From a virus, in IMG/VR virus record IMGVR_UViG_3300027905_000005, positions 1 to 21,910 of that record: a DNA stretch of 21,910 nt. One strand, written 5' to 3'. Positions 2,474 to 18,818 of the stretch are shown one piece after another. A program made the position numbers and the translations under genes. Positions within the stretch are counted from its first letter, which is position 1; each line of letters opens with the position of its first letter. The notes beneath the pieces are model-generated. The model worked only from the letters and a program-made list of their open reading frames with translations, was not told the DNA's origin and did not search any database.

Positions 2474-2641
2474 TCGTGAAATCCTCCATACCCTACATAC
2501 AGTACAGTAAGCCCCGAGCTTGCGGGAGTCGCGCGCGAAGCGAAACGATGAAGCTTGCCACGTCCATCGGCAGTATCGGCGATCACGCGATTCGACCCGC
2601 TGTTTACCCAGCCCGTGCGGATCGAGGAATTCAATCGCCCG

Positions 2642-3865
2642 ATGCTTTCCGATGAAGTCGAGACGGCGCAAACCGTGTCGCTCATGGATGAACTTTCCGA
2701 ACAAGACGCGGCCCACCGGCTTGTGATCGATGCCACGGCGCGCGCCCTTGATGAAGATGGTTTGACGTTCGATGCTTCACCGCTGGAAAAGACGGTAGCG
2801 ATTTACTGGTTCCTGAAAAGGAGTATCAGATATGTACCCACCGAAGGCACCAGCCCATTAGTCGATCAGACTTTGATTCCACCAGCCACACTTTTGGCGA
2901 TGCCAGATCCGGAGGGCGACTGTCCCCAGTTCTCAATGCTGGCATCGGCCATGCTCCGCGTGTGTTGCATTCCGAGTTTCTATAAGACCATCGCGGCGGC
3001 GGAAGAGTACCCGAACACCTACAGCCACATCTACAACATGGTGGACGTTGGCGGCGGTTCGTTCATGCCTTTCGATTCGTCGAACGGCCCCGCCCCCGGC
3101 GCGGAGTTTGCGCACCCTTATAAGGCGCGCGTGTGGCCACAGATAAGAAAGATCACCTGTGACGGGACCGCACCTTCCCGCGATCGAGGCGTCACGAGTG
3201 ACAGGGCGCCCGCGACGATGGGCCGGCCCGTCACGCGTGACGCGGCCGGAAGCTTTCAGCCGCGGCAAGTCACGAAAGGAAATCGAGCCATGCAGCGAAT
3301 GAGAAACGCCCCCGTGGGAAATCGCAACGCTATTCTGAGACGCGGGTTGCAGCATGGCCACCTGTTCTATCCGCTTCAGGGTTTGCGGCGACTCGGCCAG
3401 GACGATGGCAGCGATATAGCCGATACGTTCTCATCCGGCCCCGGTTCAGCCACGCCCGATTACTACACTCCGGCCACGACGAGCGGCCCGACGTGCGGAG
3501 TAGATATCGCGTGCGGTTCGAACCCGACAGCGGCGGAACTGGCCAACGCGGGGTTTCCCCTGGCGACCGCGATTGCAACCGCACCCAGCCCCGTCACCGG
3601 CAATTCGTCCCCGAGCCCCACCACACTGGCGGCAGCTCTCGCAGCCGACGCCACGCAACTGGTTTCGCCGATCATCAAGGCGGCAACGCAGCAACAGCCG
3701 TACTACATCACGAACCCGCAGACCGGCCAGTCAGTTCTCTACAACCCGAACACCGGAGGCACGGCGGGAACATTCGGCGCAAGCCTTTCATCACTTAGTC
3801 CGACCACGATTCTGATAGGCGTGGTTCTCATCGGAGCCCTGGCCATGTTCAGCGGGAAGAAATGA
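2642..3865 (+). CDS. Transglutaminase-like cysteine-protease-fold protein, followed by a low-complexity linker and a C-terminal membrane anchor.
   Basis: Cys/His/Asp arrangement GDCPQFSMLASAMLRVCCIP ... YSHIYNMV ... PFDSSNG with transglutaminase-core-like spacing. ATG 2642 has GAGGA at 2624-2628; the alternative TTG at 2555 is the track start. C-terminus TTILIGVVLIGALAMFSGKK. An internal Met at 3290 has its own RBS-like AAAGGAAA. Confidence 0.55.
   Translation: MLSDEVETAQTVSLMDELSEQDAAHRLVIDATARALDEDGLTFDASPLEKTVAIYWFLKRSIRYVPTEGTSPLVDQTLIPPATLLAMPDPEGDCPQFSMLASAMLRVCCIPSFYKTIAAAEEYPNTYSHIYNMVDVGGGSFMPFDSSNGPAPGAEFAHPYKARVWPQIRKITCDGTAPSRDRGVTSDRAPATMGRPVTRDAAGSFQPRQVTKGNRAMQRMRNAPVGNRNAILRRGLQHGHLFYPLQGLRRLGQDDGSDIADTFSSGPGSATPDYYTPATTSGPTCGVDIACGSNPTAAELANAGFPLATAIATAPSPVTGNSSPSPTTLAAALAADATQLVSPIIKAATQQQPYYITNPQTGQSVLYNPNTGGTAGTFGASLSSLSPTTILIGVVLIGALAMFSGKK
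3152..3273. promoter_or_regulatory. Repeat array A: four sites phased at 39 bp, lying in frame inside CDS 2642..3865.
   Basis: ATCACCTGTGAC at 3152, GTCACGAGTGAC at 3191, GTCACGCGTGAC at 3230, and a GTCAC half-site at 3269. GGGCCGGCCCGTCAC at 3220-3234 and GTGACAGGGCGCCCGC at 3198-3213. Confidence 0.8.
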
Positions 3866-4584
3866 TCCGCAACGTTTCCACGCTGAGAGCCACAGGCCCC
3901 GCTTACCGGCGCAAGCTGGGACAGACGGGCGCACTTGCCGCGATGAACTTCAACCCGATCACGGCGGGCATCAGCGTGGGAGTCGGACTGGCCAGCACCG
4001 CCGTTTCCGACTGGATGAACTCGATTCAGCTCTCACACGACGCGGACACCGCAACAACTCTTATAGTGAACGGACTGGCGACACAGCTTGCGAATCTGGA
4101 CTCCGCTTACTTTGCCGAGAACCCGCCATCGTGCGCCGATCAGCGCGCGGCGCTCGATGCGTACGATGAGGCATGGGCATGGCTTCAATCCCCGGCAGCG
4201 TGTGGAAATCCGAGTTACGGACGTGCCGGCAACGCCTGTATCAGCGATAGGGCCCCAGGCGGAAAGTTCCCATGGGCAACTTACTACCGCACACCCATAG
4301 CGAACGATCCGCGCCTGGCCAATGCGGGATGCGACACCAGCCAGCAAGTCATTCTGCCGTCACTCACCACGGGAACTTATCAGCCGACCGGGATCACGGC
4401 GGCGGGACAACTCGATAACACCACACCGGCCCCGACGCAAACGCAAACGCAAACACAGCCCGCGGCCGCATCGTCCGTTCCAGCGGGATCGGCCGCAATT
4501 CCCCCGGCAGCTATTCCCGCGTCTATCTCACCCGTTTTGATTTACGCAGCACTGGGACTGGGAGCCCTTTTCTTAATCCGATGA
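3862..4584 (+). CDS. C-terminally anchored Cys-containing protein with a TQTQTQ / Pro-Ala-rich stalk. Putative virion or membrane protein.
   Basis: ATGA overlap with the upstream stop; alternative start at ATG 3943. The C-terminus ISPVLIYAALGLGALFLIR is a hydrophobic helix followed by a basic residue. Confidence 0.6.
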   Translation: MIRNVSTLRATGPAYRRKLGQTGALAAMNFNPITAGISVGVGLASTAVSDWMNSIQLSHDADTATTLIVNGLATQLANLDSAYFAENPPSCADQRAALDAYDEAWAWLQSPAACGNPSYGRAGNACISDRAPGGKFPWATYYRTPIANDPRLANAGCDTSQQVILPSLTTGTYQPTGITAAGQLDNTTPAPTQTQTQTQPAAASSVPAGSAAIPPAAIPASISPVLIYAALGLGALFLIR

Positions 4585-5117
4585 TGCACACCCTGAGAGG
4601 ACCGGCCCGCCGAATCGCCATCGTCCAGGTTCCGCGCACGCAACTGAACCGGCTGGGAAGAATCGGGAGCATTCGAGAGGAAGACTGGTCGATTATTCCG
4701 AGCGGGTTTACACAGCTCACCGATGAACCTTACATGCCCGCGCAACCGACCGACGCCAGCGGGCAGAAAGTAACCAGCCCGCCGACAACTTCACAGTGGA
4801 TAGCTTCCATTATCCAGGCGCAATCGACGGCGCGCGAATCGACCCCCGGCACTTTGATCTATACCCCGGCGCCACGCGTGGCGGCGCCCGTCGTGGCGCG
4901 CTGGAACAGTTGGGCGGGTCCCTGCGCCACCGCCACACCCGGCGATGCCAGCTCGAGCGCGGGAAACGGCAACGGCACCGTGACCGCAACCGATTCGACG
5001 GCCACACCACCAGCGGCTACCGGACTGAACATTCCAGGAATCCTTTACGTGGCGGCGGCGTTGGGCGCGTTCGCATCGGCGGCGTACTTACTTGACAGTC
5101 TGACGGGAAGGAAATAG
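4581..5117 (+). CDS. C-terminally anchored Ser/Thr/Pro/Ala-rich protein.
   Basis: ATGA overlap with the upstream stop. C-terminus NIPGILYVAAALGAFASAAYLLDSLTGRK. Confidence 0.55.
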   Translation: MMHTLRGPARRIAIVQVPRTQLNRLGRIGSIREEDWSIIPSGFTQLTDEPYMPAQPTDASGQKVTSPPTTSQWIASIIQAQSTARESTPGTLIYTPAPRVAAPVVARWNSWAGPCATATPGDASSSAGNGNGTVTATDSTATPPAATGLNIPGILYVAAALGAFASAAYLLDSLTGRK

Positions 5118-5123
5118 GAATCC

Positions 5124-6269
5124 ATGGCACAAGGCGGCAGCGGCACGACTTTAGTTTTAGTGGCGGGCGCGGGCATCGGCGCTTATTTCTACTGGCCTGA
5201 AATTTCCGCGTGGCTCACGTCGATGGGTGTTCCGCTTCCGGGTTCGACACCGGCCCCGCCCGCGCAATCGAGCACACCGTCAACCCTTCCACCGGCGACA
5301 CCCCCCGGAGCGCAGACCACCAACAGCACGCCCGTGGTGAATCAGTGGCAACCGGCGGCGGGTTCCGTGCCCATCGGAAATTCAGGTTGCTATTCCTATG
5401 CAGGCGTCATCAGTTGCCCGCCCGGAATGACAGCCCCGCCCCCGGCGCAACCCGCGAACAACTGCCAGCCAGGGTACACGGTCGATGCAAGCGGCATCTG
5501 CACCGAATACACGGACGCGCAGATAGTCGCAGGGTTGAACTCGATCCAGTGGAGCGGCCTTAATAACATTCCCGCCGAGCAGATCAACCGCATCGATCCG
5601 CAACTGTTGGCCGAATACACGACCATGACCGGCGTAACACCGGGCAGCGTTCTTGCCTACATGCTGGGACTGGGAGGGGCAGCAGCCAGCGGAACGCAAG
5701 TCACCGGCACGGACGGGAACCTTTACATCATGCAGGGCGGTTTGTTCATGCGTCAGGCAAAGGGAACCCTTTCGGGAATTCGCGGCGCGCGTCTGGGAGC
5801 GATAGCGGCGGCGCTTCCGGTCACCAACGACATTCTGATGAAGGCCAGCTATGACCCGGACACCGCAGCCATCTTAGGCAGCGATCCGCGCGGACTGTTG
5901 ACCGTGGCTCAGTGGAATTATTTCTACTCTCAGGCCAGCGGCGTTCTGCAATCGAAACCCACACATCCGTTTGGAGAGCAGGGCGCGAAGATCAACGCAC
6001 AGCAGTATCAGGCGCTCAGGCAGCAAGCCGGGTTGCCCGTGAAGCTGGGAACGATTCACAACTCGCGGCCCGGAGCCTTTCCGCTGGGAAGCATTCGAGA
6101 CGGAGCCAGCCGCACACCGTTTTCGTATCCAGGCAATCGGAACATCTACCGCATACCAGGGCGCGGCGCGGTTCCGCAAAAGATGGGAACGATTTCGAAT
6201 GGCGGCGGCGATCATCGCTGGAGTCGAAGCCCGTTTCCCCGGCCCGCATGGTGGCGAACCGCTGAATGA
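5124..6269 (+). CDS. N-terminally anchored protein, 381 aa, with a Pro/Thr-rich stalk and a Cys-containing globular part. Putative virion/membrane protein.
   Basis: ATG 5124 is preceded by GGAAGGAAATAGGAA. N-terminal hydrophobic helix TTLVLVAGAGIGAYFYW. The longest ORF in this interval. Confidence 0.6.
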   Translation: MAQGGSGTTLVLVAGAGIGAYFYWPEISAWLTSMGVPLPGSTPAPPAQSSTPSTLPPATPPGAQTTNSTPVVNQWQPAAGSVPIGNSGCYSYAGVISCPPGMTAPPPAQPANNCQPGYTVDASGICTEYTDAQIVAGLNSIQWSGLNNIPAEQINRIDPQLLAEYTTMTGVTPGSVLAYMLGLGGAAASGTQVTGTDGNLYIMQGGLFMRQAKGTLSGIRGARLGAIAAALPVTNDILMKASYDPDTAAILGSDPRGLLTVAQWNYFYSQASGVLQSKPTHPFGEQGAKINAQQYQALRQQAGLPVKLGTIHNSRPGAFPLGSIRDGASRTPFSYPGNRNIYRIPGRGAVPQKMGTISNGGGDHRWSRSPFPRPAWWRTAE

Positions 6270-6697
6270 GCATCAGAACCCCAAGACGGCGAAGGCTGGG
6301 AGACGATCCCAGCGCATTCGGCGCAACGTGTCAGCCTGCTTGCAGTGCGGGCGGGACTCTTTGCCCGGACCCGTCAGGGTTTCTTTCATCCCTGAATCCG
6401 TGTTGCTCGTCGATCTACAACGCAGCCCCCGGCGACGGATATTGCGGAGGCGGTTCGAGCCCGACAGTAAGCGCGATCAGCAGTCAGGTGGGAGGCGCAC
6501 AGGACCCATGCACGGCGGGCGGGTTGCTTTGTCCGCAACCCGATTCGACCGGCGCAAGCCTCAACCCGTGTTGCTGGTCGAGCGCGGCGTCAGCCACCAA
6601 CACGGCCCCGCCCGCCACGAGTTCGATTCTGCTATGGGGCGGCGGCGTGCTCATCGTCGGACTGATTTTATTCGGAGGAGGGAGTAGGCGCAGATGA
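6266..6697 (+). CDS. Cys-rich, C-terminally anchored protein with an internally duplicated Cys motif.
   Basis: ATGA overlap. Motif pair CSAGGTLCPDPSGFLSSLNPCCSS / CTAGGLLCPQPDSTGASLNPCCWS. C-terminus ILLWGGGVLIVGLILFGGGSRRR. Confidence 0.6.
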   Translation: MSIRTPRRRRLGDDPSAFGATCQPACSAGGTLCPDPSGFLSSLNPCCSSIYNAAPGDGYCGGGSSPTVSAISSQVGGAQDPCTAGGLLCPQPDSTGASLNPCCWSSAASATNTAPPATSSILLWGGGVLIVGLILFGGGSRRR

Positions 6698-7143
6698 TAC
6701 GCAACGTCCCCGAGGCCGTGGGTGTAATCGATCGGTCGATTCTGAAATGGAGATCGCAGCACCTTCGTGGCGCGTGTTGCAGCGCGTGCGGAGCCACGGG
6801 CGGACATTGCGGCGAAACCGGCCCGCCCATCGGCGCGCCCGCCCAGCACACACACAAGACGTTCGGCGTTTTGGGCGACGTGCAATGCGATCAGGACGGC
6901 AACTGTTACGACAGCTCAACCGGCGAACTGCTTTCGAGCCCGGCGGAAGCGGCGGCGGGAAACCCGGCCTACATCATGAGCGGCCCGAATCCGACAGCGC
7001 AGCAGATAGCGGCGGGAATGCCATCGGCGGGAATGCCCTCTACCGTATCGTCGGTTTCGGCGTGGTTCTCTAACAACTCAGCCACCCTTGTGGGTTTGGG
7101 CGCACTCGTCGGAGTGCTGGCCTTCGTAAGCGGGCGCAGATGA
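6694..7143 (+). CDS. Cys-rich, C-terminally anchored protein.
   Basis: ATGA overlap. It starts MIRNV, like the gene at 3862. Contains CCSACGATGGHCG. C-terminus ATLVGLGALVGVLAFVSGRR. Confidence 0.6.
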   Translation: MIRNVPEAVGVIDRSILKWRSQHLRGACCSACGATGGHCGETGPPIGAPAQHTHKTFGVLGDVQCDQDGNCYDSSTGELLSSPAEAAAGNPAYIMSGPNPTAQQIAAGMPSAGMPSTVSSVSAWFSNNSATLVGLGALVGVLAFVSGRR

Positions 7144-7847
7144 GCAAACTACGCGGACAAGCCAAGGCCGAATTTCTGGCGCGCATGGCGAAGGGACGGA
7201 AGAAGGCGGCGCGCGGCAACCCGAAGGCCAAAAAGAGCGTGACGGGCCGGCCCAAACACAAAGCTGCAGCGTCACGCAACGCGGGACCCCGCAGCGTGCG
7301 CAAGAGCAAAAAGGCGATGAAAAAGTTTCTGCCTGGGTTCAAGCGCAAGAAGCGGCGGAATCAGGAAGACAGCATCGAGAGCGCGGCGGAAAAGTTCGCT
7401 GAGTTCCACGGCAAGCCCCCGGGCCGCATCGTCGAATACGAACAGGGTTACAACTACCCGGAGAACTACGCGGAGATGGGCAAGCTGAAAGAGCTTCGGT
7501 TCGACCTGAATACGCTGAACCGCGATTTCCCGCTTTCCAATTTCAAGGACTGTCAGGCGGTCTGCACACCGGACGGGAGCAACATCTATTTCATCGGCGG
7601 CGATCAGCGCATCGACTTCGAGGCGCTCGATATCGCCAGCGACAAAGATTTCGTGGAGCTTGGCCCATGCCGCTACATCATGTACCACACCGTGAAAGGG
7701 TTCCACGATTTTGACCCAACGGACTACTGGCACCGATTCGGCGAAGAGAACAACATCTTTCCGGTTCTGGCCTACGACCGTTTGAACCACACGCTCTTTT
7801 TGATCGGCGGAGACTACCGCGTCAGACCCGAAGGAATCGTGAACTGA
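7140..7847 (+). CDS. Protein with a highly basic (Lys/Arg-rich) N-terminal region of about 75 aa and a globular C-domain. Putative internal / DNA-associated virion protein.
   Basis: ATGA overlap. N-terminus KGRKKAARGNPKAKKSVTGRPKHKAAASRNAGPRSVRKSKKAMKKFLPGFKRKKRRN. The C-domain carries a repeated FIGGDxR motif (IYFIGGDQRI, LFLIGGDYRV). Confidence 0.6.
   Translation: MSKLRGQAKAEFLARMAKGRKKAARGNPKAKKSVTGRPKHKAAASRNAGPRSVRKSKKAMKKFLPGFKRKKRRNQEDSIESAAEKFAEFHGKPPGRIVEYEQGYNYPENYAEMGKLKELRFDLNTLNRDFPLSNFKDCQAVCTPDGSNIYFIGGDQRIDFEALDIASDKDFVELGPCRYIMYHTVKGFHDFDPTDYWHRFGEENNIFPVLAYDRLNHTLFLIGGDYRVRPEGIVN
7239..7275. promoter_or_regulatory. Repeat array D: two half-sites inside CDS 7140..7847.
   Basis: GTGACGGGCCGGCCC at 7239-7253 and GTCAC at 7271-7275, in the same 39-bp phase as arrays A and B. 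Confidence 0.7.
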
Positions 7848-7859
7848 AGAGGAGAACCG

Positions 7860-8642
7860 ATGGCAAAGGCATTGAAAAAAGTTCGCGTTGCTTCCAACCC
7901 TCACCGGAAGCCCGCATCGAAGAAAAGACCGAACGCTAAGAAAGGGAGTCACACGCACCACATGGCAAACAACAAGAAGAAGAACAAAGCGGCCAGTCAC
8001 CACAAGAAGAAGGGCAACCCGGCCACGCATCACAGACGGCGCGGGAAACGGAACCCCAGCCTATCGGGAATCATCGGAAGCCCGAAAGAAATTCTCATCA
8101 GCGCCGTGGCGGGAACGGCTGGTTTCGTGGCATCGTCGCAGATTCCGCAGTTGATTTTGCAGGCGAACAACACGGGACCCATGGGCTACGCGGCGAACGC
8201 AGCCACCGGCGTGGCCATCACGCTGGCGGCGGGCGCATTCGCGGGACCCGTTGCAGGGCGCGCCGCTATGGTGGGTTCGCTCGTCATGCTGGTGGACCGG
8301 CTGATAACCGAGAACCTTTCGAGCATCGGCCCCTATCTGACGATTTCAGGCGTGGGCGACGCAACGGCCACGCACCGCATGGGAACCATCCGCGATGGTT
8401 ACTATCTTCACCCCACGATGGTGGACGGACAGGGCAACATGATCGTGCCCGATCCCGTCACCCAGGCGGCTATTGCCGCAGTGCTGGCAAAGTACCCGCA
8501 GATCGCGGCCCCGCTTGCCCAGGCGGTTCAAACGGGCGGCAAGATGGGCGCGGTAAACCCTTCCGGCCTTCGCAGGCACACGGCAAGCGGGCAGCTTTTG
8601 AGCAGCCGTTTCCAGAGCAGATTTAATCAGGCCCTCAATTAA
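7860..8642 (+). CDS. Protein with a basic, His/Lys/Arg-rich N-terminus followed by 2-3 hydrophobic helices. Putative membrane-embedded DNA-binding virion protein.
   Basis: ATG 7860 has an AAGAGGAGAA RBS. N-terminus RKPASKKRPNAKKGSHTHHMANNKKKNKAASHHKKKGNPATHHRRRGKRNP. Hydrophobic segments ILISAVAGTAGFVA, GVAITLAAGAFAGPVAG and AAMVGSLVMLV. Confidence 0.65.
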   Translation: MAKALKKVRVASNPHRKPASKKRPNAKKGSHTHHMANNKKKNKAASHHKKKGNPATHHRRRGKRNPSLSGIIGSPKEILISAVAGTAGFVASSQIPQLILQANNTGPMGYAANAATGVAITLAAGAFAGPVAGRAAMVGSLVMLVDRLITENLSSIGPYLTISGVGDATATHRMGTIRDGYYLHPTMVDGQGNMIVPDPVTQAAIAAVLAKYPQIAAPLAQAVQTGGKMGAVNPSGLRRHTASGQLLSSRFQSRFNQALN

Positions 8643-8678
8643 GGGGCAGCAGCAAAAGACAGGAAGAGGAAAAGAAAA

Positions 8679-9233
8679 ATGAGCAGCAGCCCCAGCGTAT
8701 ACGTCCCCGGAAAAGTCAGAACGATTCAAAGCCCGTACTACGATACCTACCTCGTCAGTTCGGGCGGAACCGTCAACGCCGGAGGACTCACCAAAATGTT
8801 CGGCAACATCCAGGGTGTCGGAGGGATCGGCCCGAACATCACCAACATGCAGCAAGCCTTTCAGCTCAGTGGCGGCGAGAGCTTTTTACTCTCGTCGTTC
8901 CGTTGCGTGTTCATCGGTTGCGCCCTTGCGGACGTGAACAGCTTTTTCATCAACAACACCGTGCGCCTCATCATCGGCACGGGAAACTTTGCGTACGCGG
9001 ACGCGCCCGCCGAATATTGGGCATCGGGCGCGGGAGCCTACGGAGGGACCAGCGCGGCGGCGACCAACGGGATACCAGACCCGCGCGCCATCGTGCCTTT
9101 CGATGTCGATCCCATCGAGTTGACCGACGGCGTTAACTTTCACGTGGAACTGATCGGCGTGGCCTTCAGTGCGACGGCTAACTTTACGCTCCGGGTGTAT
9201 CTGGACGGCCAGAAAACCCAGCCCGCGCAGTAA
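8679..9233 (+). CDS. Beta-rich structural protein candidate, 184 aa, possibly a capsid subunit.
   Basis: Strong purine-rich RBS (AGGAAGAGGAAAAG). Followed by a structured 84-nt spacer. Composition is typical of beta-sandwich virion proteins. No motif-level identification. Confidence 0.55.
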   Translation: MSSSPSVYVPGKVRTIQSPYYDTYLVSSGGTVNAGGLTKMFGNIQGVGGIGPNITNMQQAFQLSGGESFLLSSFRCVFIGCALADVNSFFINNTVRLIIGTGNFAYADAPAEYWASGAGAYGGTSAAATNGIPDPRAIVPFDVDPIELTDGVNFHVELIGVAFSATANFTLRVYLDGQKTQPAQ

Positions 9234-9317
9234 GCGTCCACCATCGTTCGGAACCGGCGAGGGGCACCGGCGCGCCTCGTCAGTTCGGGCGAGTAACCGA
9301 ACATCGAGAGGATAAAT

Positions 9318-9731
9318 ATGTCTCCAACAGGAAGCCCCGCAAGCGGCGGCGGCGCGACTGCGCAGCCCACGTTTGTGGAAGAACCGGCAACATACGTTTT
9401 CAATTACACCCTCAGCTCAGGACAGGCGGTCACGCGCGTGGCGGTCAACATCGACCGTGATTCGGATTTTGCCCTGACGGGCATCAACGGAGTGAGCACT
9501 GGAGGCTACACGCTGAATGTTCGACTCCCATCCGGGCGGCTCATCGGCAGCGCGCAGATGATTTCAACGCAGTTCGTTTCGTCGAACCCGAACCAGCCCA
9601 CGGCCATCGGTCCCCCGCCCATCTACCGCGCGGGTTCGACCGGCCCCGAACTGGACCTGACGGATACGAGTCTGGCAAGTAACACGCTGCAACTTATTTT
9701 TTCGGGCATCCGCAGACTGAGAACGCAGTAA
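9318..9731 (+). CDS. Beta-rich structural protein candidate, 137 aa.
   Basis: ATG 9318 is preceded by GAGAGGA. Clean ORF with no competing frame. Confidence 0.55.
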   Translation: MSPTGSPASGGGATAQPTFVEEPATYVFNYTLSSGQAVTRVAVNIDRDSDFALTGINGVSTGGYTLNVRLPSGRLIGSAQMISTQFVSSNPNQPTAIGPPPIYRAGSTGPELDLTDTSLASNTLQLIFSGIRRLRTQ

Positions 9732-9750
9732 CAGAACGAAGGAAGGGGAA

Positions 9751-10308
9751 ATGCTGAATAACCCGTGGATCGATCCGCGCGGCGTTGACTGGACAGACAG
9801 CCTGAACCCGTTGACGAAGCCCGGATGGAGCCTGAATAACAATCAGTTCGCTTTCGAGTCGTTGCAGGACCCGATTTTCGTGGCGCTTCGAAACGCCATC
9901 GGCATCGAGGCGCGGATATGGGTATGCCCCGATCCCGTGAACCAGAGCATCGCGCCGCAGGTTACCAGCGCCTACAACGTTCCCGCGGAACCGAATACGT
10001 GGGTATGGGCGCTCAATGCCATCAGCAACCCAGGCACCACACCGGACCCGGCAGGATTCTATGTGCAGGTGTCCGACTCTCTCACCGGCGCGAATCTTTT
10101 CAGTTCACCCGTGCTGAATAGCAACCTTGACGGCGCGCGGACCACGGCGGGCGATGCGAAGCAATGCCCCCTCATCCTCATCGCGGCCCCAAGACTCTTT
10201 ATCCCCCCGGCCTATCCCATCGTCACGATTGTGAACTTATCCATGAGCGCGCAGACCTGCATCGTGCAGTTGTTTTGCGCAATCGAAACGGACACGGTGT
10301 CAGTCTGA
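9751..10308 (+). CDS. Beta-rich structural protein candidate, 185 aa.
   Basis: ATG 9751 is preceded by GGAAGGGG. Stop at 10306-10308. Confidence 0.55.
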   Translation: MLNNPWIDPRGVDWTDSLNPLTKPGWSLNNNQFAFESLQDPIFVALRNAIGIEARIWVCPDPVNQSIAPQVTSAYNVPAEPNTWVWALNAISNPGTTPDPAGFYVQVSDSLTGANLFSSPVLNSNLDGARTTAGDAKQCPLILIAAPRLFIPPAYPIVTIVNLSMSAQTCIVQLFCAIETDTVSV

Positions 10309-10802
10309 TGGCAGGCAGTTATATTACTTCGAGCCCCGCCGTTCTCAGCCCTTACAACCTACAGCTTGAGCAGCGGCGGAACACTCTGGCGACGGCGATC
10401 CGCTACGCCCTCACGCCCGGATGCAACCCCATCACGGGCAAACCGAACCTCACGCCCAACCAACTGCGAAAGCAGCTTCTTTCGGTTCCGATCAACGCGA
10501 CCGTGGCGGGAGACAATCCGCTCATCCCCACGACTTCCGGCCCCATCAGCATTTACGAAGTGGTGATCTGGAACGCATCGGCCGCACCGGTGAACCTTAC
10601 TTTTTTCCAAGGCGGATCGGGCGGCATTCTGTTGTTGCCTCTGCCGAATTTTCCAGCGACTACAGGGTTTACGCTTGGGTTCAACGGTTCTTTCGATCAA
10701 CCCCATTTCGAGATCGACAGCGGGCAGCAGTTCGTTTTGAACCTTTCGACCGCTGGCCCCGTTACCGGGATGTGCCGCTACAAGATTCAGAACGGCACAT
10801 GA
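10308..10802 (+). CDS. Beta-rich structural protein candidate, 164 aa.
   Basis: ATG 10308 overlaps the upstream stop (TGATG). It is the internal Met of track ORF 10164..10802, whose upstream part overlaps the previous gene. Confidence 0.5.
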   Translation: MAGSYITSSPAVLSPYNLQLEQRRNTLATAIRYALTPGCNPITGKPNLTPNQLRKQLLSVPINATVAGDNPLIPTTSGPISIYEVVIWNASAAPVNLTFFQGGSGGILLLPLPNFPATTGFTLGFNGSFDQPHFEIDSGQQFVLNLSTAGPVTGMCRYKIQNGT

Positions 10803-10811
10803 TGAGGCGGC

Positions 10812-10926
10812 GTGACACTCCGGAGGCGCGCGGCGGGCGCCCTGTCACCGTGACGGGCCGGCCCAGGCACGCGCCGGCAGCGTCACATGTGACGAGTCGA
10901 CGCGTTGAAGGCCCCAGCTCAGTCAC
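10812..10926. promoter_or_regulatory. Repeat array B: fills the intergenic gap upstream of the capsid-candidate gene.
   Basis: GTGAC at 10812-10816. GCGGGCGCCCTGTCAC-C-GTGACGGGCCGGCCC at 10833-10864. GTCACATGTGAC at 10882-10893. GTCAC at 10922-10926, abutting ATG 10927. Spacings are 38-40 bp. Confidence 0.8.
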
Positions 10927-12030
10927 ATGCAACCGCTGACTTTCAAGGGCGCGCTGAACGTCGGGCTTTTCAAACTGCCGTACCAGGTCCCCAACCCTTC
11001 TTTCATCACGCCATATCGTTGGATGCCCGATTCATGGAGTTTGTCAGACGACATCGCAGGGACCACGCGCACGCTCAGATTGTTGCGCCTAACGGCCCCC
11101 GTGGTGAACGTCCTCTCTAACACCGGGCCATCAGCGCCGAACGGAGGGCAAGGAAGCATATGGGGCGCGCAGGCGCTACGCGGAACCCTGGACGGCCTGA
11201 ACAATGCCGACGCGTGTCTGTATGCCACTCCGCTAACCGGAGGCCCCTACGCGTCCGACGACAATCTTTTCGTGCCACTGTCAACAACCGGCGCGCCCGC
11301 TGGAGGATTCGGCGCGAACCCGGCCATCGTTCCGCTGGCGACGGACGCGGGAGATGTGAAATTCGCATCGTACGGCGAGGACATCACCTTCACCACTCAA
11401 TACCGGCTGTTGACCCCGGCGACCTTCACGCCACAGCAGGGATGGTTTGTTTCTCCATCGACTCCGCTCTTACCGCCGAACCTTCAAGCCTACTGGCCCG
11501 ACGCGCCGAACAAAAGAAACCGCAGCATCAATCAGGGTCTTTTCGGACTGACGAACATCATAGATTTTTTTCTCAGCGCGGACGGTTCGACGCTCACCCA
11601 GGCGACCATCGAGCAAAGCCCGCTCACCGGAAATTCGACGGTGGATTCACCGATGTACCAGCAGCCGAATCAGGCGAACGGGTTCTACATCACCGCCGAC
11701 AATTCGGGAGGCCCCGCCCCCGTCATACCCAACGGCTCACCGATCTTTTTCATTGCGGGCGATCTTAGCGCCTGGTGGGAGCTTGTCTTTTTCGCGGCGG
11801 GACCCGGCGTCAACCCGAACGATTTGGGCGGCTATGGCCCGCCGTGGGATTACGCGGCGGCCCCGCAGATCACGAGCGATGCAGAGGGGAATATCTACTA
11901 CCTGCAAAACAACGTGGCCACACCCGGATTCATGGACGTGTACAGCGGGAAGCTTCCGGGCGGCGGCTCATTCGGCGGAACTTTCGTCAGCTTCATAGTT
12001 CCCAATCAACTGGCAGGAGGCAACAAATGA
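10927..12030 (+). CDS. 367-aa virion protein; major capsid protein candidate. Size is compatible with a double jelly-roll, but the fold is unverified.
   Basis: ATG 10927 is the first start after the in-frame TGA at 10906-10908. It sits directly behind the repeat array 10805-10926. Long clean ORF just upstream of the fibre gene. No sequence motif identifies the fold. Confidence 0.55.
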   Translation: MQPLTFKGALNVGLFKLPYQVPNPSFITPYRWMPDSWSLSDDIAGTTRTLRLLRLTAPVVNVLSNTGPSAPNGGQGSIWGAQALRGTLDGLNNADACLYATPLTGGPYASDDNLFVPLSTTGAPAGGFGANPAIVPLATDAGDVKFASYGEDITFTTQYRLLTPATFTPQQGWFVSPSTPLLPPNLQAYWPDAPNKRNRSINQGLFGLTNIIDFFLSADGSTLTQATIEQSPLTGNSTVDSPMYQQPNQANGFYITADNSGGPAPVIPNGSPIFFIAGDLSAWWELVFFAAGPGVNPNDLGGYGPPWDYAAAPQITSDAEGNIYYLQNNVATPGFMDVYSGKLPGGGSFGGTFVSFIVPNQLAGGNK

Positions 12031-13901
12031 GCGCACCGATTCTTACGCACGCGGCGACCACCTTGGGGTTGAACTTTCAATACCCACTCCAGAGCACGCA
12101 GGACAGCGAACCCACGGTAGAAATCGTTCCGGGCGCAAGCGGCCAGGTGCTCACGTCGAACCCGGCAGCACCGGGCGGCGTTGACTGGGAGACACCGAGC
12201 CCCGGCTTTACAAATCCCATGACCACGAAAGGAGACATCATCGCGGCAGGCGTTGGAGGGACACCGGCGCGGGTGGCTGTAGGAACCAACGGTCAGGTGC
12301 TCACGGCGAATTCAGCGGCGGCGGATGGCGTTGACTGGGAGACACCGAGCCCCGGCTTTACAAATCCCATGACCACGAAAGGGGATGTGATCGCGGGCGG
12401 CGTGGCGGGCGCACCGGCGCGACTGGGAGTAGGAACCAACGGCCAGGTGCTCACGGCGAATTCGGCGGCGGCGGATGGCATCGACTGGGAAACGCCCTTC
12501 ACAAGTCCGATGACTACGAAGGGCGATTTGATCGCGGGCGCGGCGGGCGGCATCCCGGCGCGCGTGGGAGTGGGAATCAACGGCCAGGTGCTGACCGCGA
12601 ATTCGGCGGCGGCGGACGGCGTCGATTGGGAAACACCCAGCGCGGGTTTCGCCAATCCGATGACTACCAAAGGCGATCTGATCGCGGGCGCGGCGGGCGG
12701 CATCCCGGCGCGCGTGGGAGTGGGAATCAACGGCCAGGTGCTCACCGCGAATTCCGCGGCGGCGGACGGCATCGATTGGGAAACAGCGGCAACGGGAACC
12801 GTTACTAACAGCAGCGGCGCTCTGACGGCGGACCTTCCAGTTTTCGGCAATGGGGCGGCGGACGTAAAAGTAGGAACAAAAACCGGAAACACCGATAAGC
12901 TGGTAACCCAGGCAGGCGCGGCCACCAGCGGCGCTCCATTGCTCTATGACGCATCCGGCAACGCGATAGCAGGGAGCAAGACCGGCAACACGTCCGAACT
13001 CGTCACAGCGACTGGCGCGGCCACCAGCGGCTATCCGTTGCTCTATGACGCATCAGCCAACGCCATTGGCCAACAGCCACGCGGGAACACGACAGTGGTA
13101 CAGCTTGCCGATTCCACGACAAACCCGACCAGCGGAGACCTAACCAGTTTCGACGCCAACGGGAACGTGATGGATTCCGCGATTCTGGCCAGCGCTGTGG
13201 CTCTGACGGCAAACGTCGTACCCAAAACGCGCAACGTAAATACAGCGGCCCCGCTTGCGGGCGGCGGCGGTCTCAGCGCCGATCTGAATTTGACGATCGC
13301 AACCGCAGGCGTGGGAACGCTAGGCGCATCGAGCCCGGACGGAACGACTATCGCCGTGACAGCGGGAGTTTATCGCGTGCTGACTCCGGCAGCGCCGAGC
13401 GGCGCTGCATTCTCACAGGATGCCCCATGGTTCACCACATCGAGTTCGAACTGGCAAAATCTGACTCTGTTTTGCCGTATCCGAGGTTGGACACTTTCGG
13501 CATTCCCGGCGAGCTGGACGGTGAAGATTTTGTTTCTTGCCGGAAGCCCCGTAATCGGCAATATGGTCATCCTGAAAACGATTGCCGCAGGTCCCACCGT
13601 TGGCGTGGCGGTTATCTCCACCACTTCAGTAACCATCGGAGGCGTGAGCAATCCGACGCTGGTAACTCCGTCGATTGTGACGACGGACGCCATCACCCTG
13701 GCACTCGACAACGCGCATGAATTTTATTTCCTGATCTTTTTCGCCAACAACGCGGCGAACGTGGCGGTAAGCCTGGGAGCAACCCCGGCCACGACCGGCA
13801 ACACTTTCGATATCTCCGGAGATCAAACCGGCATCAGCAGTCTACCGGCACTGGGAGCCGGAAACGGCAGTGTAGGGATCATGGGTCTATTCTTCCCATA
13901 G
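12027..13901 (+). CDS. Fibre / spike (receptor-binding) protein with tandem 50-aa repeats.
   Basis: ATG 12027 overlaps the upstream stop (ATGA), with GGAGG at 12016-12020. There are 4.3 repeats of GQVLTANSAAADG(V/I)DWETPSPGFTNPMTTKGD.IAG..G..AR.GVG.N, then two 33-aa repeats (KTGNT..LVT..GAATSG.PLLYDAS.NAI). The track start 11775 lies inside the previous gene. Confidence 0.7.
   Translation: MSAPILTHAATTLGLNFQYPLQSTQDSEPTVEIVPGASGQVLTSNPAAPGGVDWETPSPGFTNPMTTKGDIIAAGVGGTPARVAVGTNGQVLTANSAAADGVDWETPSPGFTNPMTTKGDVIAGGVAGAPARLGVGTNGQVLTANSAAADGIDWETPFTSPMTTKGDLIAGAAGGIPARVGVGINGQVLTANSAAADGVDWETPSAGFANPMTTKGDLIAGAAGGIPARVGVGINGQVLTANSAAADGIDWETAATGTVTNSSGALTADLPVFGNGAADVKVGTKTGNTDKLVTQAGAATSGAPLLYDASGNAIAGSKTGNTSELVTATGAATSGYPLLYDASANAIGQQPRGNTTVVQLADSTTNPTSGDLTSFDANGNVMDSAILASAVALTANVVPKTRNVNTAAPLAGGGGLSADLNLTIATAGVGTLGASSPDGTTIAVTAGVYRVLTPAAPSGAAFSQDAPWFTTSSSNWQNLTLFCRIRGWTLSAFPASWTVKILFLAGSPVIGNMVILKTIAAGPTVGVAVISTTSVTIGGVSNPTLVTPSIVTTDAITLALDNAHEFYFLIFFANNAANVAVSLGATPATTGNTFDISGDQTGISSLPALGAGNGSVGIMGLFFP
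12141..12790 (+). repeat. Coding tandem repeat, period 150 nt with one 141-nt unit, about 4.3 copies.
   Basis: Units begin with GG(C/T)CAGGTGCT at 12141, 12291, 12441, 12582 and 12732. Long stretches are identical at the DNA level between units 1 and 2 and between units 3 and 4. Confidence 0.9.
12879..13076 (+). repeat. Coding tandem repeat, period 99 nt, 2 copies.
   Basis: KTGNTDKLVTQAGAATSGAPLLYDASGNAIAGS / KTGNTSELVTATGAATSGYPLLYDASANAIGQQ, with the shared DNA core GGCGCGGCCACCAGCGGC...TTGCTCTATGACGCATC. Confidence 0.85.
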
Positions 13902-14121: not shown

Positions 14122-14541
14122 ATGGGTTCGAATTTTCCCCCAGGCACACCACCAATCGGCTACACCGAAGCGTTTTCACTAACCGGACTCGTTGCGGCTC
14201 TCACAACCCGCACGATGTACACCGCGCAGGTTGCAGGGCTTTACGCAGTGGGTTTTTGCTGCAACATCGTGGCCACGAACAAAGCGGGAACCATTGCCTG
14301 CACGCTGGGAACCCCCCACGCTGGCACCGTCGTCGTAGGCGTAGCGCCAGCGGCCCCCGGCGATACTCAGACAGCCATCGAGCAGGACCCGGCCTTAGGA
14401 GGCGCAACGCCCGTCGATGGGTACAGCGCCATGATTCCCGTGTGGATGAATGCGGGCGATGTGGTGACCTTTGCCACCGCCGTGGGAGGTTTAACAGGAA
14501 CCACCTACAACGTGTACGTGGCGGTTCAGCGCCTGCTTTAA
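14122..14541 (+). CDS. Small beta-rich protein, 139 aa. Possibly a fibre-associated or receptor-binding accessory protein.
   Basis: ATG 14122 lies 3 nt after the upstream stop and is preceded by GGAGAAGAG. The C-terminal segment (GYSAMIPVWMNAGDVVTFA ... YNVYVAVQRLL) loosely resembles the end of C1q/TNF-like jelly-roll domains. Confidence 0.5.
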   Translation: MGSNFPPGTPPIGYTEAFSLTGLVAALTTRTMYTAQVAGLYAVGFCCNIVATNKAGTIACTLGTPHAGTVVVGVAPAAPGDTQTAIEQDPALGGATPVDGYSAMIPVWMNAGDVVTFATAVGGLTGTTYNVYVAVQRLL

Positions 14542-15509
14542 CCCCGCCGATTCCGGCGAGGAGGACCTGCAGCAACACCGGAAACGGCGATATCGGCCGT
14601 CACCGTTCGAAGTGGCGATGGTGACCGGCGCGGCGCGCCGTTTCCGGCGATGGTGGACGTCGCAGGCAGCTCCGTTTTCAGCGATGGGGGATCCAAATCC
14701 ACTTCACCGATAGCAGCCAGCAGCGCCCGCCGTTCGAGCAAAGGCATTCGCCGAATCTTATTCACCCACCGCAGCTTTTTTCGTTTGATCCGTTCCCGTG
14801 CGCGGAAGTCCCCGCCGAGATACGTATAGTCATGCAGCGCCACCGGCTCAGGAAAGTTACACCAGAGCCATTCCGTTCGAGGCGTTCCCCCCCGCGTCAT
14901 AGTCTGATACTGCACCGTATCCCAGCCCGAAAGAAATTCGGCGTAGCGTTCGGACCAGTAACCCGAGATCATCACCCGGCAGGGCAGGCGGCGCAGAATC
15001 GACAAGAGCAACATATGGTCCAGGTCGTTCAGCTCGCATCGGTAGATATCACGAGGACCACGCGTTTCACGCATGTAGGGCGGATCACAGTACACCAGCT
15101 CCGAGCCCCCGAAGGGATAGGCCGAAAGGAAGGGAATCGCATCACCGTGGAACAAATGCCACGCGGGTCCGGCCACGTCGTTTTTGGCGATCCCGGCCCG
15201 TTTTCCACTTTTGAACAGCCCCACAATCGCTTCAGGTGCTTTCGGCGCGGCCTTCCCAATAGCTGAGGACCCGGAAACGCGAGAGCGCGATCGCTCAACG
15301 CCGGAAATGGCGATTCCTCCGGCGGAATCGCTGAAAGTGACGAGGGGATCCAAATTCAGATCGATTCCGATGTTCAGCAGCGCGGGTTTCTTCAGGCGCA
15401 TGATGGCACCCCCGCCCAGAAACGGTTCGAGGTACACGTCATGCGGCGGCATCCGGTTAATGATGGTCTGAAAAACACCGGCCCCGTTCTTTCCGCCCGG
15501 ATACGTCAA
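14538..15509 (-). CDS. N6-adenine DNA methyltransferase, Dam-like (D12 class).
   Basis: N-terminal YPGGK, motif I EPFLGGGAI and catalytic DPPY (LVYCDPPYM). TTG start at 15509 has GGGGAGG 5 nt upstream and overlaps the stop of the upstream methyltransferase (TTGA). Confidence 0.85.
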   Translation of the reverse strand: MTYPGGKNGAGVFQTIINRMPPHDVYLEPFLGGGAIMRLKKPALLNIGIDLNLDPLVTFSDSAGGIAISGVERSRSRVSGSSAIGKAAPKAPEAIVGLFKSGKRAGIAKNDVAGPAWHLFHGDAIPFLSAYPFGGSELVYCDPPYMRETRGPRDIYRCELNDLDHMLLLSILRRLPCRVMISGYWSERYAEFLSGWDTVQYQTMTRGGTPRTEWLWCNFPEPVALHDYTYLGGDFRARERIKRKKLRWVNKIRRMPLLERRALLAAIGEVDLDPPSLKTELPATSTIAGNGAPRRSPSPLRTVTADIAVSGVAAGPPRRNRRG

Positions 15510-16321
15510 AGTGTGCCTCCCCGGGTGACAACGCCCCGCGCGGCGTCACGCTTGCGTTCCATCCGTTTCCTACAGGCGGGACCCGCCGATATCGCCTTGC
15601 CCTTCACAGGGCGCGCGCAACCGCACACACACAACCGGATGGAATCACCCGGCACCGGCGAAACGACAGCCCCCGCTATGAAGCGCGCCACTTCGAGATG
15701 CACCCCGTTACCCACGGCCCGATACTTTGCGCCGAGCGTGAAGGAAGGAAGATCAAAATCCGAGGGCAAGCCCTGCAATGCACAGAAGGCCCCGAAGTCC
15801 CGGCGCGTTCCCCCCGTCGAAGCCAGCAAAGTGGGAGCTGGCATCGACGGCCCCGACGATGGACGCTGCAGATAGAGCACGTATCCGGCCCGATGGCCGA
15901 ATTGAAAGTGACGGAGGCGGCGTTGCCCCACGCCCAAATGTTTGGCGTCGATATCGATTCTCTGATGGCTGTAACCGGCAATCGGAACGTCAGGGCACCC
16001 CGGCACGTTTTCGAGGAGCCACCAGCGCGGGCGCACTTCGAGAACGACCCGGCGGAACTCCCGCAGCATTTCGACACCGTACCCGCTGGGAGCCCCACGG
16101 CGCGCGCGCGAGAAGTCCGGGCAGGGTGAACCCGCTATCACTCCATCGAAGCGGCCAGCGGGCGCGTGGAACTCTCTTATATCCCCGCCGAAAATCAAAT
16201 TGGGACCCCGCACAACGCTGAACCCCTGGGATTCGAACCCACGTCCCAGCAGATCGATGCCTGGAAAGAGCGAAAGAACCAGTTGTGACGAGTAGCTACG
16301 TTTCCGGCGATGTGCGCCCAC
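15506..16321 (-). CDS. DNA (cytosine-5) methyltransferase, compact at 271 aa, with a Cys-rich C-terminal tail.
   Basis: Motif I LFPGIDLLGRGF, motif IV GSPCPDFS, motif VI LLENVPG, motif VIII-like HLGVGQRRLRHF, motif X YRAVGNGV. The C-terminal CVCGC...C could be a zinc ribbon. The GTG start at 16321 is uncertain because the RBS is too close. Confidence 0.85.
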   Translation of the reverse strand: MGAHRRKRSYSSQLVLSLFPGIDLLGRGFESQGFSVVRGPNLIFGGDIREFHAPAGRFDGVIAGSPCPDFSRARRGAPSGYGVEMLREFRRVVLEVRPRWWLLENVPGCPDVPIAGYSHQRIDIDAKHLGVGQRRLRHFQFGHRAGYVLYLQRPSSGPSMPAPTLLASTGGTRRDFGAFCALQGLPSDFDLPSFTLGAKYRAVGNGVHLEVARFIAGAVVSPVPGDSIRLCVCGCARPVKGKAISAGPACRKRMERKRDAARGVVTRGGTL

Positions 16322-18259: not shown

Positions 18260-18619
18260 GTGCCGATCCGCAAAGAACACCGCCGTTTTTACGGCGCGCA
18301 GTGGCGCGCCTACCGGCTGAAACTCATCGCGGAAGCGGGCGGCGAGATTTGCAGCAAATGCGGCATCGAGCTTGCCCAGGGGATCAACGGCGCACATCAG
18401 GACCATGACCCTCAGAACAACAACAGCGCGGTTCTGATGTGCCCCAGTTGCCACGCAACCCACGACGCCCCACATCGCATAGCGATACAGCGACGAAGGA
18501 AAGCGGCCACCGAAGGGCAAGGCTGGCTTTTACCCGAGCTGGAATGGTCCCCATTCGCAGACTGGGAAATACCCGGCTGGGTCTATGACCGGCTGAAGCA
18601 GAGCAAGCTTTTTGACTAG
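18260..18619 (+). CDS. HNH endonuclease.
   Basis: CSKCG ... HQDHDPQNNNSAVLMCPSCHATHD, i.e. a Cys pair, H-D-H, Asn, and CxxC-H. GTG start at 18260. Confidence 0.75.
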   Translation: MPIRKEHRRFYGAQWRAYRLKLIAEAGGEICSKCGIELAQGINGAHQDHDPQNNNSAVLMCPSCHATHDAPHRIAIQRRRKAATEGQGWLLPELEWSPFADWEIPGWVYDRLKQSKLFD

Positions 18620-18629
18620 ACTGGGAGCC

Positions 18630-18818
18630 ATGAAGAAACTTTCGGACGAGCAGTTAAGGCGCGAGGCATTCCGAAATCTGGCGGGCGCTTTCGGCGAAGT
18701 GCTGGACGTGCTCACGGATCAGGCGGCGCGGCGAATCGTCGAGATGGGAACGGCCCCGCTGAAAAAGGCACTGGTAGAAGCCATCGGACCCGCCCCGAAA
18801 AAGAAGGCCCGCCCGTGA
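18630..18818 (+). CDS. Small helical protein, 62 aa, with a basic C-terminus.
   Basis: ATG 18630 follows GGGAG. The track start TTG 18612 overlaps the upstream gene. Tail PAPKKKARP. Confidence 0.45.
   Translation: MKKLSDEQLRREAFRNLAGAFGEVLDVLTDQAARRIVEMGTAPLKKALVEAIGPAPKKKARP

Follow-up and report, generated by a model that had tools for sequence, protein, structure and literature searches.

Membrane-containing phages are few in culture and may be common in nature, and how their virions select membrane proteins is poorly understood. Here we describe a cassette of six genes in a viral DNA of 21,910 nucleotides (IMG/VR record IMGVR_UViG_3300027905_000005, positions 1 to 21,910), which we analysed over its full length and call the window. 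Five of the cassette proteins, together with a lysin encoded elsewhere in the window, end in a hydrophobic helix and a short Arg/Lys tail, and we weigh whether the cassette supplies the membrane proteins of a lipid-containing virion.

The Escherichia coli proteins ElaB, YqjD, YgaM (DUF883), DjlC and Flk are tail-anchored: like the viral set, they lack a signal sequence and carry a single helix at the extreme C-terminus with at most 15 residues after it. The anchors of ElaB and YqjD have been described as a Gly-rich helix followed by a positive patch that ends in di-arginine (PMC5525287; PMC6389858), a likeness that extends to the viral anchors. In E. coli, neither SecYEG nor YidC is strictly required for the insertion of moderately hydrophobic tail-anchored proteins (PMC6794478). 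The E. coli proteins and the viral set show no sequence homology, and the viral set differs in that five or six families are clustered in one viral operon. A shared N-terminal leader, MIR...R(L/M)G, is a further viral feature that we have not found described for cellular tail-anchored proteins.

For the membrane-containing phages PRD1 and PM2, the site of assembly is a virus-specific patch of the cytoplasmic membrane (PMC6356626). The two phages have membrane-associated muralytic proteins (P7 and P15 in PRD1, P7 in PM2; PMC5380687). Encapsidation of the circular PM2 DNA is thought to be concurrent with membrane and capsid formation (PMC6356626). Both resemble our virus in having many small membrane proteins in the structural region (P7, P11, P14, P16, P18 and others in PRD1; P3-P10 in PM2) and a muralytic enzyme on the viral membrane, which for our virus is a prediction from the genes. 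The window shows no similarity to any of their PHROG or Pfam families, and it differs from both phages in having no detected double-jelly-roll capsid protein and no packaging ATPase. To our knowledge, a uniform design of leader plus tail anchor is not a described feature of PRD1 or PM2 proteins.

Sulfolobus polyhedral virus 1 (Portogloboviridae) has a genome of circular double-stranded DNA, ~20 kb long, with several predicted membrane proteins. Its nine assigned open reading frames (ORFs; seven for DNA-binding proteins, one each for a glycosyltransferase and a methyltransferase) include no ATPase, and neither a DNA or RNA polymerase nor a replication initiation protein is identifiable in it (PMC8459092). 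The architecture of this family combines single jelly-roll capsid proteins, an inner membrane and a nucleoprotein core. The window resembles it in size, topology, a candidate jelly-roll-like protein, two proteins with basic arms, membrane proteins and the lack of an ATPase. Portogloboviridae differ in being archaeal and hyperthermophilic, and with no sequence match or convincing fold match the likeness is one of gene-content logic. Judged in this way, the resemblance to PRD1, PM2 and Portogloboviridae is architectural, and none of them is homologous.

Conserved C-terminal anchors

The cassette consists of six tightly packed genes on the plus strand, at positions 2615/2642-3865 (gene 1), 3862-4584 (gene 2), 4581-5117 (gene 3), 5124-6269 (gene 4), 6266-6697 (gene 5) and 6694-7143 (gene 6). 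ATGA start/stop overlaps join the genes at five of the six junctions examined (3862, 4581, 6266, 6694 and 7140), and no promoter-like or terminator-like site within the cassette scored above shuffled sequences. We therefore treat the cassette as one translationally coupled operon.

Five cassette proteins and the lysin carry a C-terminal helix followed by one to seven residues that end in Arg or Lys. The helices are encoded at nucleotides 3794-3850 (gene 1; tail SGKK), 4522-4578 (gene 2; tail R), 5037-5093 (gene 3; tail DSLTGRK), 6626-6682 (gene 5; tail SRRR), 7078-7134 (gene 6; tail RR) and 19651-19595 on the minus strand (lysin; tail SRR). They contain two to seven Gly, with the maximum in gene 5, and the chains end in RR, RRR, KK, RK or R. 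An earlier sequence-only reading of the window had quoted these six C-termini, and all are present at the ends it gave.

Hydropathy sets the six tails apart from the rest of the genome. Their best 19-residue segments have Kyte-Doolittle means of 1.85-2.15 and Hessa sums of -0.03 to +2.23 kcal/mol (2.15 and 0.77 for gene 1), while the sum is at least 4.2 in each of the other 27 proteins; the tails are the genome's only strongly hydrophobic segments. Each helix lies within the last 26 residues and is preceded by 118-390 residues, in line with a published selection rule for tail-anchored proteins (a single transmembrane helix with ≤15 residues after it and >30 before it; PMC5525287). The Ser/Thr/Pro/Ala-rich stalk that had been described before every helix holds for three of the proteins, in which S/T/P/A/G make up 0.70-0.78 of the 40 preceding residues. 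The fraction in the other three is 0.47-0.60, and in gene 1 the stretch before the helix is a conserved motif, PYYITNPQTGQSVLYNPNTG, and not low-complexity sequence.

We compared the anchors with those of six related loci that we fetched (L001, L004, L005, L007, L009 and L010). Orthologues in L001, L004, L007, L009 and L010 keep the anchors down to 35-50% identity, with differing residues. In the distant L005, whose capsid-like protein is 37% identical, several proteins have a helix and a short basic tail of other sequence. Within the gene 2 family, 110 of 120 homologues pass a strict hydropathy threshold; most of the others are marginal, and one is apparently frameshifted. This conservation already refutes the idea that the tails are a chance or compositional artefact of GC-rich coding, or the product of mis-called ORFs, and leaves it a negligible probability. 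Some features of the window do lean that way: at a GC content of ~60%, translations rich in Ala, Gly, Leu and Val are common, and purine-rich sequence just before the next start codon coincides with the Gly-Gly-Ser-Arg-Arg tails and may contribute to their composition. However, the design occurs in 6 of 33 real genes and in none of 171 out-of-frame decoy ORFs (≥60 amino acids), and the lysin tail has no coupled gene after it. The anchors that the sequence-only reading had pointed out are real, non-random and conserved.

The six anchored proteins lack a signal peptide. In their first 60 residues, the top 10-residue Kyte-Doolittle means are 0.79-1.93 and the 19-residue Hessa sums are at least 6.5. 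The proteins are very probably tail-anchored membrane proteins; among the options that had been listed for them, tail-anchored envelope proteins are the best fit. The missing signal peptide, the Gly-rich C-terminal helix and the short basic tail point to post-translational insertion that would leave the N-terminal domain in the cytoplasm, by analogy with the E. coli proteins.

The cleavable C-terminal sorting signals on which a host sortase, exosortase (PEP-CTERM) or rhombosortase (GlyGly-CTERM) acts have, formally, a like layout, with a helix and a basic cluster at the very end of the protein, and the sequence-only reading had raised this comparison. The lysin tail, VDVPSGAW...FFFSRR, is presumably a little like VPEP/VPDSG variants. 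Our motif search of the anchored proteins found no LPxTG, PEP, VPEP, [VI]P[ED]P or PGF/PEF motif, in agreement with the earlier statement that LPxTG and PEP are absent. The profile search that had been suggested against sorting-signal hidden Markov models spoke against the comparison: no NCBIfam sorting-signal model passed at E values up to 10, and there was no PEP-CTERM-type or GlyGly-CTERM match. LPXTG_anchor (TIGR01167) reached 11.5 bits, below its cut-off of 15.9, in gene 6 only and over model positions 9-31, which correspond to the helix and basic tail. Rhombosortase substrates carry Gly-Gly directly before the helix; here a GG upstream of it is found in gene 1 only and is not conserved. 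A Sec signal peptide, which every known class of sorting substrate needs, is absent, and across the five families no common motif is conserved before the helix. With no motif, no passing model and no signal peptide, we do not file the proteins under the sortase, exosortase or rhombosortase families; the explanation is largely refuted and highly improbable.

A shared leader and a recurring R(L/M)G motif

The leader common to most of the anchored proteins consists of Met-Ile-Arg/His, 0-35 variable residues and Arg-(Leu/Met)-Gly. The window holds MIRNV...RRKLG in gene 2 (residues 1-20), MMHTL...NRLG in gene 3 (running on as NRLGRIG), MSIRTPRRRRLG in gene 5, MIRNV... in gene 6 and (V)IRAA...SRRLG in the lysin (nucleotides 20242-20120). 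The gene 3 leader reads MIRTT in L004 and L010. Over six genomes, a C-terminal helix is present in 21 of 25 proteins that start with M[MS]?I[RH], with three of the remaining four marginal, and in 12 of 109 other proteins (Fisher p 1.7e-12; the orthologues in this test are not independent, but they come from five distinct families). MI[RH] opens 96 of the 116 full-length members of the gene 2 family, and 103 of 116 have RxG within the first 60 residues, mostly followed by Asp, Gln, Ala or Ser. The L005 leader differs (MYSNT...GLGQ) and ends in a similar Leu-Gly-Gln.

The second half of the leader recurs inside the proteins of this region. The eight membrane-module proteins hold 10 copies of [RK][LM]G where 1.35 would be expected (p <2e-4), three of them in gene 4, two in the gene at 7860-8642 and one in gene 1. 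The gene 1 copy, Arg-Arg-Leu-Gly at 3389-3400, sits exactly at the junction of the protease-like transglutaminase domain and the anchored, gene-6-homologous C-terminal module; relatives have GLGD, RMGD or ALGD at this position.

The sequence-only reading had pointed to shared nucleotide strings in the cassette, GGCGCAGATGA at 6687 and 7133 and ATGAT[CA]CGCAACGT at 3862 and 6694, and had taken them as signs of paralogous expansion. Both strings are exact. The one that encodes MIRNV is nonetheless not just an echo of duplication, because it belongs to the protein-level leader, which that reading had overlooked. Paralogy itself holds for part of the cassette: the middle module of gene 6 is homologous to the C-terminal half of gene 1 (49% over 59 amino acids against L001; 75% over 60 amino acids within L007), and genes 5 and 6 have similar leaders. 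Genes 2 and 3, in contrast, are unrelated to the others outside the leader and anchor.

The leader is most simply read as a virion-targeting or processing signal. The capsid-targeting sequences of T4 and the substrates of the adenovirus protease provide precedents, in which unrelated virion proteins share a short terminal peptide that guides them into the particle and is afterwards cut by a virus-encoded protease. T4 sites read L/I-x-E and adenain sites (M/I/L)xGx-G. The R(L/M)G motif differs from both, and its cleavage is our proposal. The gene 1 enzyme is the candidate leader protease, since its own domain boundary carries the R(L/M)G motif; unlike the T4 and adenovirus proteases, it would have a transglutaminase-like fold and be membrane-anchored itself. 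That it cleaves the leader is possible, and we hold the idea with considerable doubt.

Features of the individual cassette genes

Gene 1 encodes a transglutaminase-like (papain-fold) core, the internal RRLG and the tail anchor. Its start is probably GTG 2615 and not ATG 2642, as the sequence-only reading had it, because the nine upstream residues gained (VRIEEFNRP) are conserved in relatives. The Transglut_core domain was matched over residues 44-145 (Pfam E 1.9e-5; 25.3 bits against a cut-off of 23), and Cys94, His129 and Asp145 are invariant in four homologues. We rejected a PDB match of gene 1 to NKG2-D (E 0.0014) as spurious, with a per-domain E above 1.

Between its leader and anchor, the gene 2 protein has a conserved helical domain with four invariant Cys and a Thr/Pro/Ala stalk. 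Its AlphaFold model has a mean predicted local distance difference test (pLDDT) score of 79.6, rising above 90 over residues 70-170. A Foldseek search of the PDB with this model gave nothing with E <2.9 and so no functional lead, and a PDB profile search gave no match. Residues 30-50 form an additional marginal helix (19-residue Kyte-Doolittle mean 1.28). Because a mildly hydrophobic stretch comes after RRKLG, we considered a twin-arginine translocation (Tat) signal. This candidate was rejected: L004 reads RQRMG, so that the twin arginine is not conserved, and the segment after RRKLG is conserved beyond what is expected of a signal peptide.

Gene 3 consists of the leader, a stalk and the anchor. 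Gene 4 is the cassette member without a C-terminal anchor. It has a weak hydrophobic segment near its N-terminus (residues 6-24, nucleotides 5139-5195; Hessa sum 4.2), a Pro/Thr linker and a conserved domain in which (R/K)(L/M)G(T/A)I occurs three times and the C-terminal HRW.SPFPRP is invariant. Gene 5 carries a Cys-rich module between leader and anchor, in which the Cys motif C..GG.LCP.P......SLNPCC is internally duplicated. Gene 6 has CCxxC...HC followed by the gene-1-like module; the N-proximal CCxxC is conserved among its orthologues, with the following HC present in the window and L001. The Cys motifs of genes 5 and 6 may bind metal or form disulfide bonds, a choice that bears on the side of the membrane they face. 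Genes 2-6 matched nothing in Pfam or PHROGs and no NCBIfam model at its passing score.

A probably anchored lysin

The sixth anchored protein, encoded on the minus strand at 19583-20242, has a muralytic domain between leader and anchor. PHROGs matched it to families of endolysins, tape-measure proteins and tail-injection transglycosylases (E 1e-14 to 2e-7), and its PDB matches are Gp29 (9vvp_L, E 2.4e-5) and Endolysin (7q47_A, E 0.012). The start had been placed at 20104. GTG 20242 is probably the true one, because it yields fMet-Ile-Arg and an RRLG leader and the L010 homologue starts with MIRH. This gene overlaps no other, yet it starts like the leader-bearing genes of the cassette.

The lysin raises the possibility that the cassette encodes membrane proteins that stay out of the virion, in the inner membrane of the infected cell, and act in lysis timing, lysin tethering or release, superinfection exclusion, envelope remodelling, or as a platform for assembly or replication. 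At least one anchored protein has a predicted lysis-type activity, and membrane tethering is a known way of regulating lysins. No holin or spanin is otherwise recognised in the genome by Pfam or PHROGs, where the lysin domain gave the sole match to a lysis family. The anchored proteins were considered as holins or spanins and rejected. Holins are small, with N-terminal or multiple helices, and spanins comprise a type II protein with an N-terminal anchor and a lipoprotein partner, whereas the helices here lie at the extreme C-terminus of proteins of 143-416 residues. Five or six such proteins with large conserved N-terminal domains go far beyond the needs of a lysis cassette. The cassette also heads a structural-looking operon and is translationally coupled into it, while the lysin lies elsewhere on the other strand, and the anchor architecture has been kept across deep divergence along with the capsid-like genes. 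We judge a purely non-virion role to be unlikely.

Downstream genes and the type of virion

The gene that follows the cassette (7140-7847, plus strand) is translationally coupled to it and encodes a soluble protein with a Lys/Arg-rich N-terminal third, conserved even in L005. The next product (7860-8642, plus strand) starts with a very basic arm of variable sequence, closed by an Arg-Asn-Pro that is invariant. A conserved hydrophobic region rich in Gly and Ala (Hessa sum 4.3) comes next, and (R/K)MG occurs twice. This protein is a candidate link between DNA and membrane. Both proteins start with long arms rich in Lys, Arg and His, and the C-terminal SSRFQGRFNQ of the second is kept even in L005.

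Three genes were considered as capsid candidates: 8679-9233, whose product was modelled, 9318-10802 and 10927-12030. The first (plus strand) encodes a 184-residue protein and is the most conserved gene of the genome, with 84% identity to L004 against 35-57% for other genes. A profile search of 1.84 billion proteins placed 460 clusters (at 50% identity) in its family. AlphaFold predicts a single, eight-stranded beta-sandwich (pLDDT 81.7), for which Foldseek matches in the PDB and BFVD were weak (E ≥3e-3) and mixed. They include single jelly-roll capsids (satellite tobacco necrosis virus, circoviruses, geminiviruses and bromoviruses) and TNF/C1q folds, and also unrelated proteins such as furin. 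When 110 distant members of the family were compared with PHROGs, 15 families were matched by one member each, none with a description. This protein is our candidate for the major capsid protein.

Downstream lie genes for four other small proteins rich in beta structure and for two that are fibre-like. In L004, three tandem genes at 7987-11125 offer a comparison for 10927-12030: the first carries a K1-lyase_C Pfam domain, the second and third have almost identical C-termini (GVFEGTFAGFT..GHFGGGTK), and the third is homologous to 10927-12030 (47% identity). These features suggest that 10927-12030 encodes a receptor-binding or depolymerase-type protein and not a capsid protein. The gene at 12027-13901 encodes a fibre-like repeat protein whose PHROG matches are annotated as tail fibre and virion structural protein. 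Its tandem units recur every ~150 nucleotides (50 amino acids) as ...TTKGD(I/L)IAG..G.PARVGVG.NGQVLTANSAAADG(V/I)DWETP, and a second repeat pair spans 99 nucleotides.

Nucleotides 1-37 are identical to nucleotides 21874-21910, and this 37-nucleotide direct repeat indicates a complete circular (or terminally redundant) genome of ~21,873 bp. Pfam and PHROG searches of the genome matched no terminase, portal, HK97-type or double-jelly-roll capsid protein or packaging ATPase. The real ORFs of the complete genome, and those in the viral parts of its relatives, are all free of Walker A motifs. The genome therefore reads, in order, as membrane proteins, DNA-binding proteins, shell and fibres, with no motor. 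The hallmarks of tailed phages (Caudoviricetes), namely a terminase large subunit, a portal and an HK97-fold capsid protein, are absent from these matches, as is any P-loop. The same is true of the FtsK/HerA-type packaging ATPase of the internal-membrane phages of Varidnaviria (Tectiviridae, Corticoviridae and Autolykiviridae), no ATPase family being matched. With no tailed-phage hallmark genes, and with hydrophobic segments in about seven of the eight genes at 2615-8642, the lipid-containing virion proposed by the sequence-only reading is a reasonable inference.

Relatives and other features of the genome

Homology searches recovered 182 homologues of gene 2 and 82 of the 184-residue protein, on contigs that cluster at 19-23 kb. 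Gene order is the same across the fetched relatives, except in the very distant L005. No match was found among 50,697 GenBank phage records (megablast with the whole window; tblastn with two proteins), and scanning IMG/VR with two proteins gave no relatives. Species-representative genomes scanned with the 184-residue family yielded only a 21-residue fragment in a Schlesneria metagenome-assembled genome and no host assignment. In two relatives the viral genes run straight into bacterial ones, an ABC transporter in L001 (15600-18252) and a DUF3738 fusion in L007 (11527-13266). These joins could reflect integration, prophage decay or chimeric assembly; neither carries a transfer RNA (tRNA) gene, and none, also as an integration site, was found in the window or five related loci. 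DUF3738 is typical of Acidobacteriota, which gives a weak hint at the host.

Pfam and PHROGs recognise few genes of the genome, among them the gene 1 core and the minus-strand muralytic domain. The only replication-related match is a DnaA_N-like domain at 31-387; no integrase or polymerase was found in the window. Two DNA methyltransferases, a D12-class N6-adenine and a C5-cytosine enzyme, are encoded side by side on the minus strand (14538-16321; Pfam/PHROG). An HNH/endonuclease VII-like protein with PHROG support lies close to this pair (18815-19486, plus strand), and a second is weakly matched, below the Pfam cut-off, at 18260-18619 (plus strand).

The 16-mer GTGACGGGCCGGCCCA is present in four exact copies, against 0.05 expected in the window, at 3219-3234 (minus), 7239-7254 (plus), 10850-10865 (plus) and 20335-20350 (minus). 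The copies lie in imperfect repeats (3184-3275, 7229-7275, 10810-10900 and 20325-20397) that hold GTCACNNGTGAC palindromes. Two are intergenic, upstream of 10927 and of the lysin start, and two are within coding sequence. The repeat in gene 1 corresponds to in-frame insertions in the window and L001 that are not seen in L004 or L007, and none of the fetched relatives contains an exact copy of the 16-mer. An operator is one possible identity, a small mobile palindromic element another.

A model for the recruitment of membrane proteins

Because the genome is a complete circle without a recognised terminase, portal, capsid protein or ATPase, and because the cassette lies upstream of genes for basic, shell and fibre proteins, we think it about as likely as not that the cassette supplies the membrane proteins of a tailless virion that contains lipid. 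The cassette proteins would be made in the cytoplasm and insert through their tail anchors into the cytoplasmic membrane. Their N-terminal domains would then lie on the cytoplasmic side, where the shell and the DNA-bound basic proteins would assemble. The resulting patch of cytoplasmic membrane would become the viral membrane, on the pattern of PRD1 and PM2, with the N-terminal domains toward the capsid and the Arg/Lys tails toward the DNA side. The anchored lysin could be carried along and serve passage through the cell wall at entry or exit, or be active at lysis. The common leader may be an incorporation signal, a maturation signal or both. If it is processed, the candidate protease is the anchored transglutaminase-fold enzyme of gene 1, which would cut after (L/M)G. 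Topology, location in the virion and leader cleavage are the steps we infer.

Several points weigh against this model. Lipid, virion location and proteolysis are predictions from the genes, and the transmembrane helices are predicted by the hydropathy scales of Kyte-Doolittle and Hessa. The jelly-roll assignment of the shell protein is weak, with E values of at least 3e-3 and TM-scores mostly of 0.15-0.4. Both PRD1 and PM2, the internal-membrane phages we compared, encode a packaging ATPase, which is missing here. The ATGA overlap partly favours Ile in the leader, as it requires the second codon to begin with A, a constraint from which the lysin gene, with the same start, is free. The positive-inside rule would place the Arg/Lys tails in the cytoplasm. 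Finally, several N-terminal domains are rich in cysteine, with four invariant residues in gene 2 and many in genes 5 and 6, which fits an oxidising, extracytoplasmic site better, unless the cysteines bind metal or are oxidised after release.

The last two points would suit a budding, pleomorphic virion with an envelope, in which the proteins are type I envelope proteins or spikes, with the N-terminal domains outside, as in the spikes of pleolipoviruses and plasmaviruses. The tails would then lie in the cytoplasm or particle interior and the conserved cysteines in extracytoplasmic domains, and a missing packaging ATPase suits budding viruses. In L005, four large proteins encoded downstream of the capsid-like gene (5628-12680) all have signal-peptide-like starts, which is unusual for proteins assembled in the cytoplasm and also fits an enveloped particle. 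This topology, which the sequence-only reading had offered as well, is disfavoured by the lack of signal peptides: no N-terminal segment of the anchored proteins is hydrophobic enough to export 120-390 residues. Moreover, the conserved beta-sandwich and four small beta-rich proteins look like a protein shell, and a muralytic enzyme in this orientation would face the wrong side. We consider budding spikes quite improbable and retain the tailless, lipid-containing virion as our preferred reading.

The architecture of the anchors, their conservation, the association of leader and anchor and the absence of known sorting signals are what the sequences show. Tail-anchored proteins and phage membrane proteins are of already known kinds. 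What appears to be new is the concentration of five or six tail-anchored families in one operon, the leader that these families share and the R(L/M)G that recurs alongside an enzyme of transglutaminase fold, and an ATPase-less circular genome in a large virus group outside the recognition of Pfam, PHROGs and NCBIfam.

Extending the model, we tentatively propose that the window represents a large undescribed lineage of bacterial double-stranded DNA viruses with circular genomes of ~20-22 kb and no packaging ATPase, terminase or known capsid fold. Their lipid-containing virions would combine a small jelly-roll-like shell protein, DNA-condensing basic proteins and tail-anchored proteins that are recruited, and perhaps matured, through the MIR...R(L/M)G leader by a membrane-anchored protease of transglutaminase fold. 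If true, this would be a bipartite viral sorting system without a described counterpart, in a bacterial analogue of the portoglobovirus-type architecture.

The analysis yields a testable sequence rule, a leader plus a tail anchor on five or six families, conserved across a family that has hundreds of metagenomic members. A candidate protease comes with it, as does a small, complete genome that no ATPase-dependent packaging model fits. Should the model be confirmed, it would establish a new assembly principle for bacterial viruses and provide a natural toolkit of bacterial tail-anchor signals, and it would flag a virus group that pipelines based on Pfam, PHROGs and NCBIfam miss entirely.

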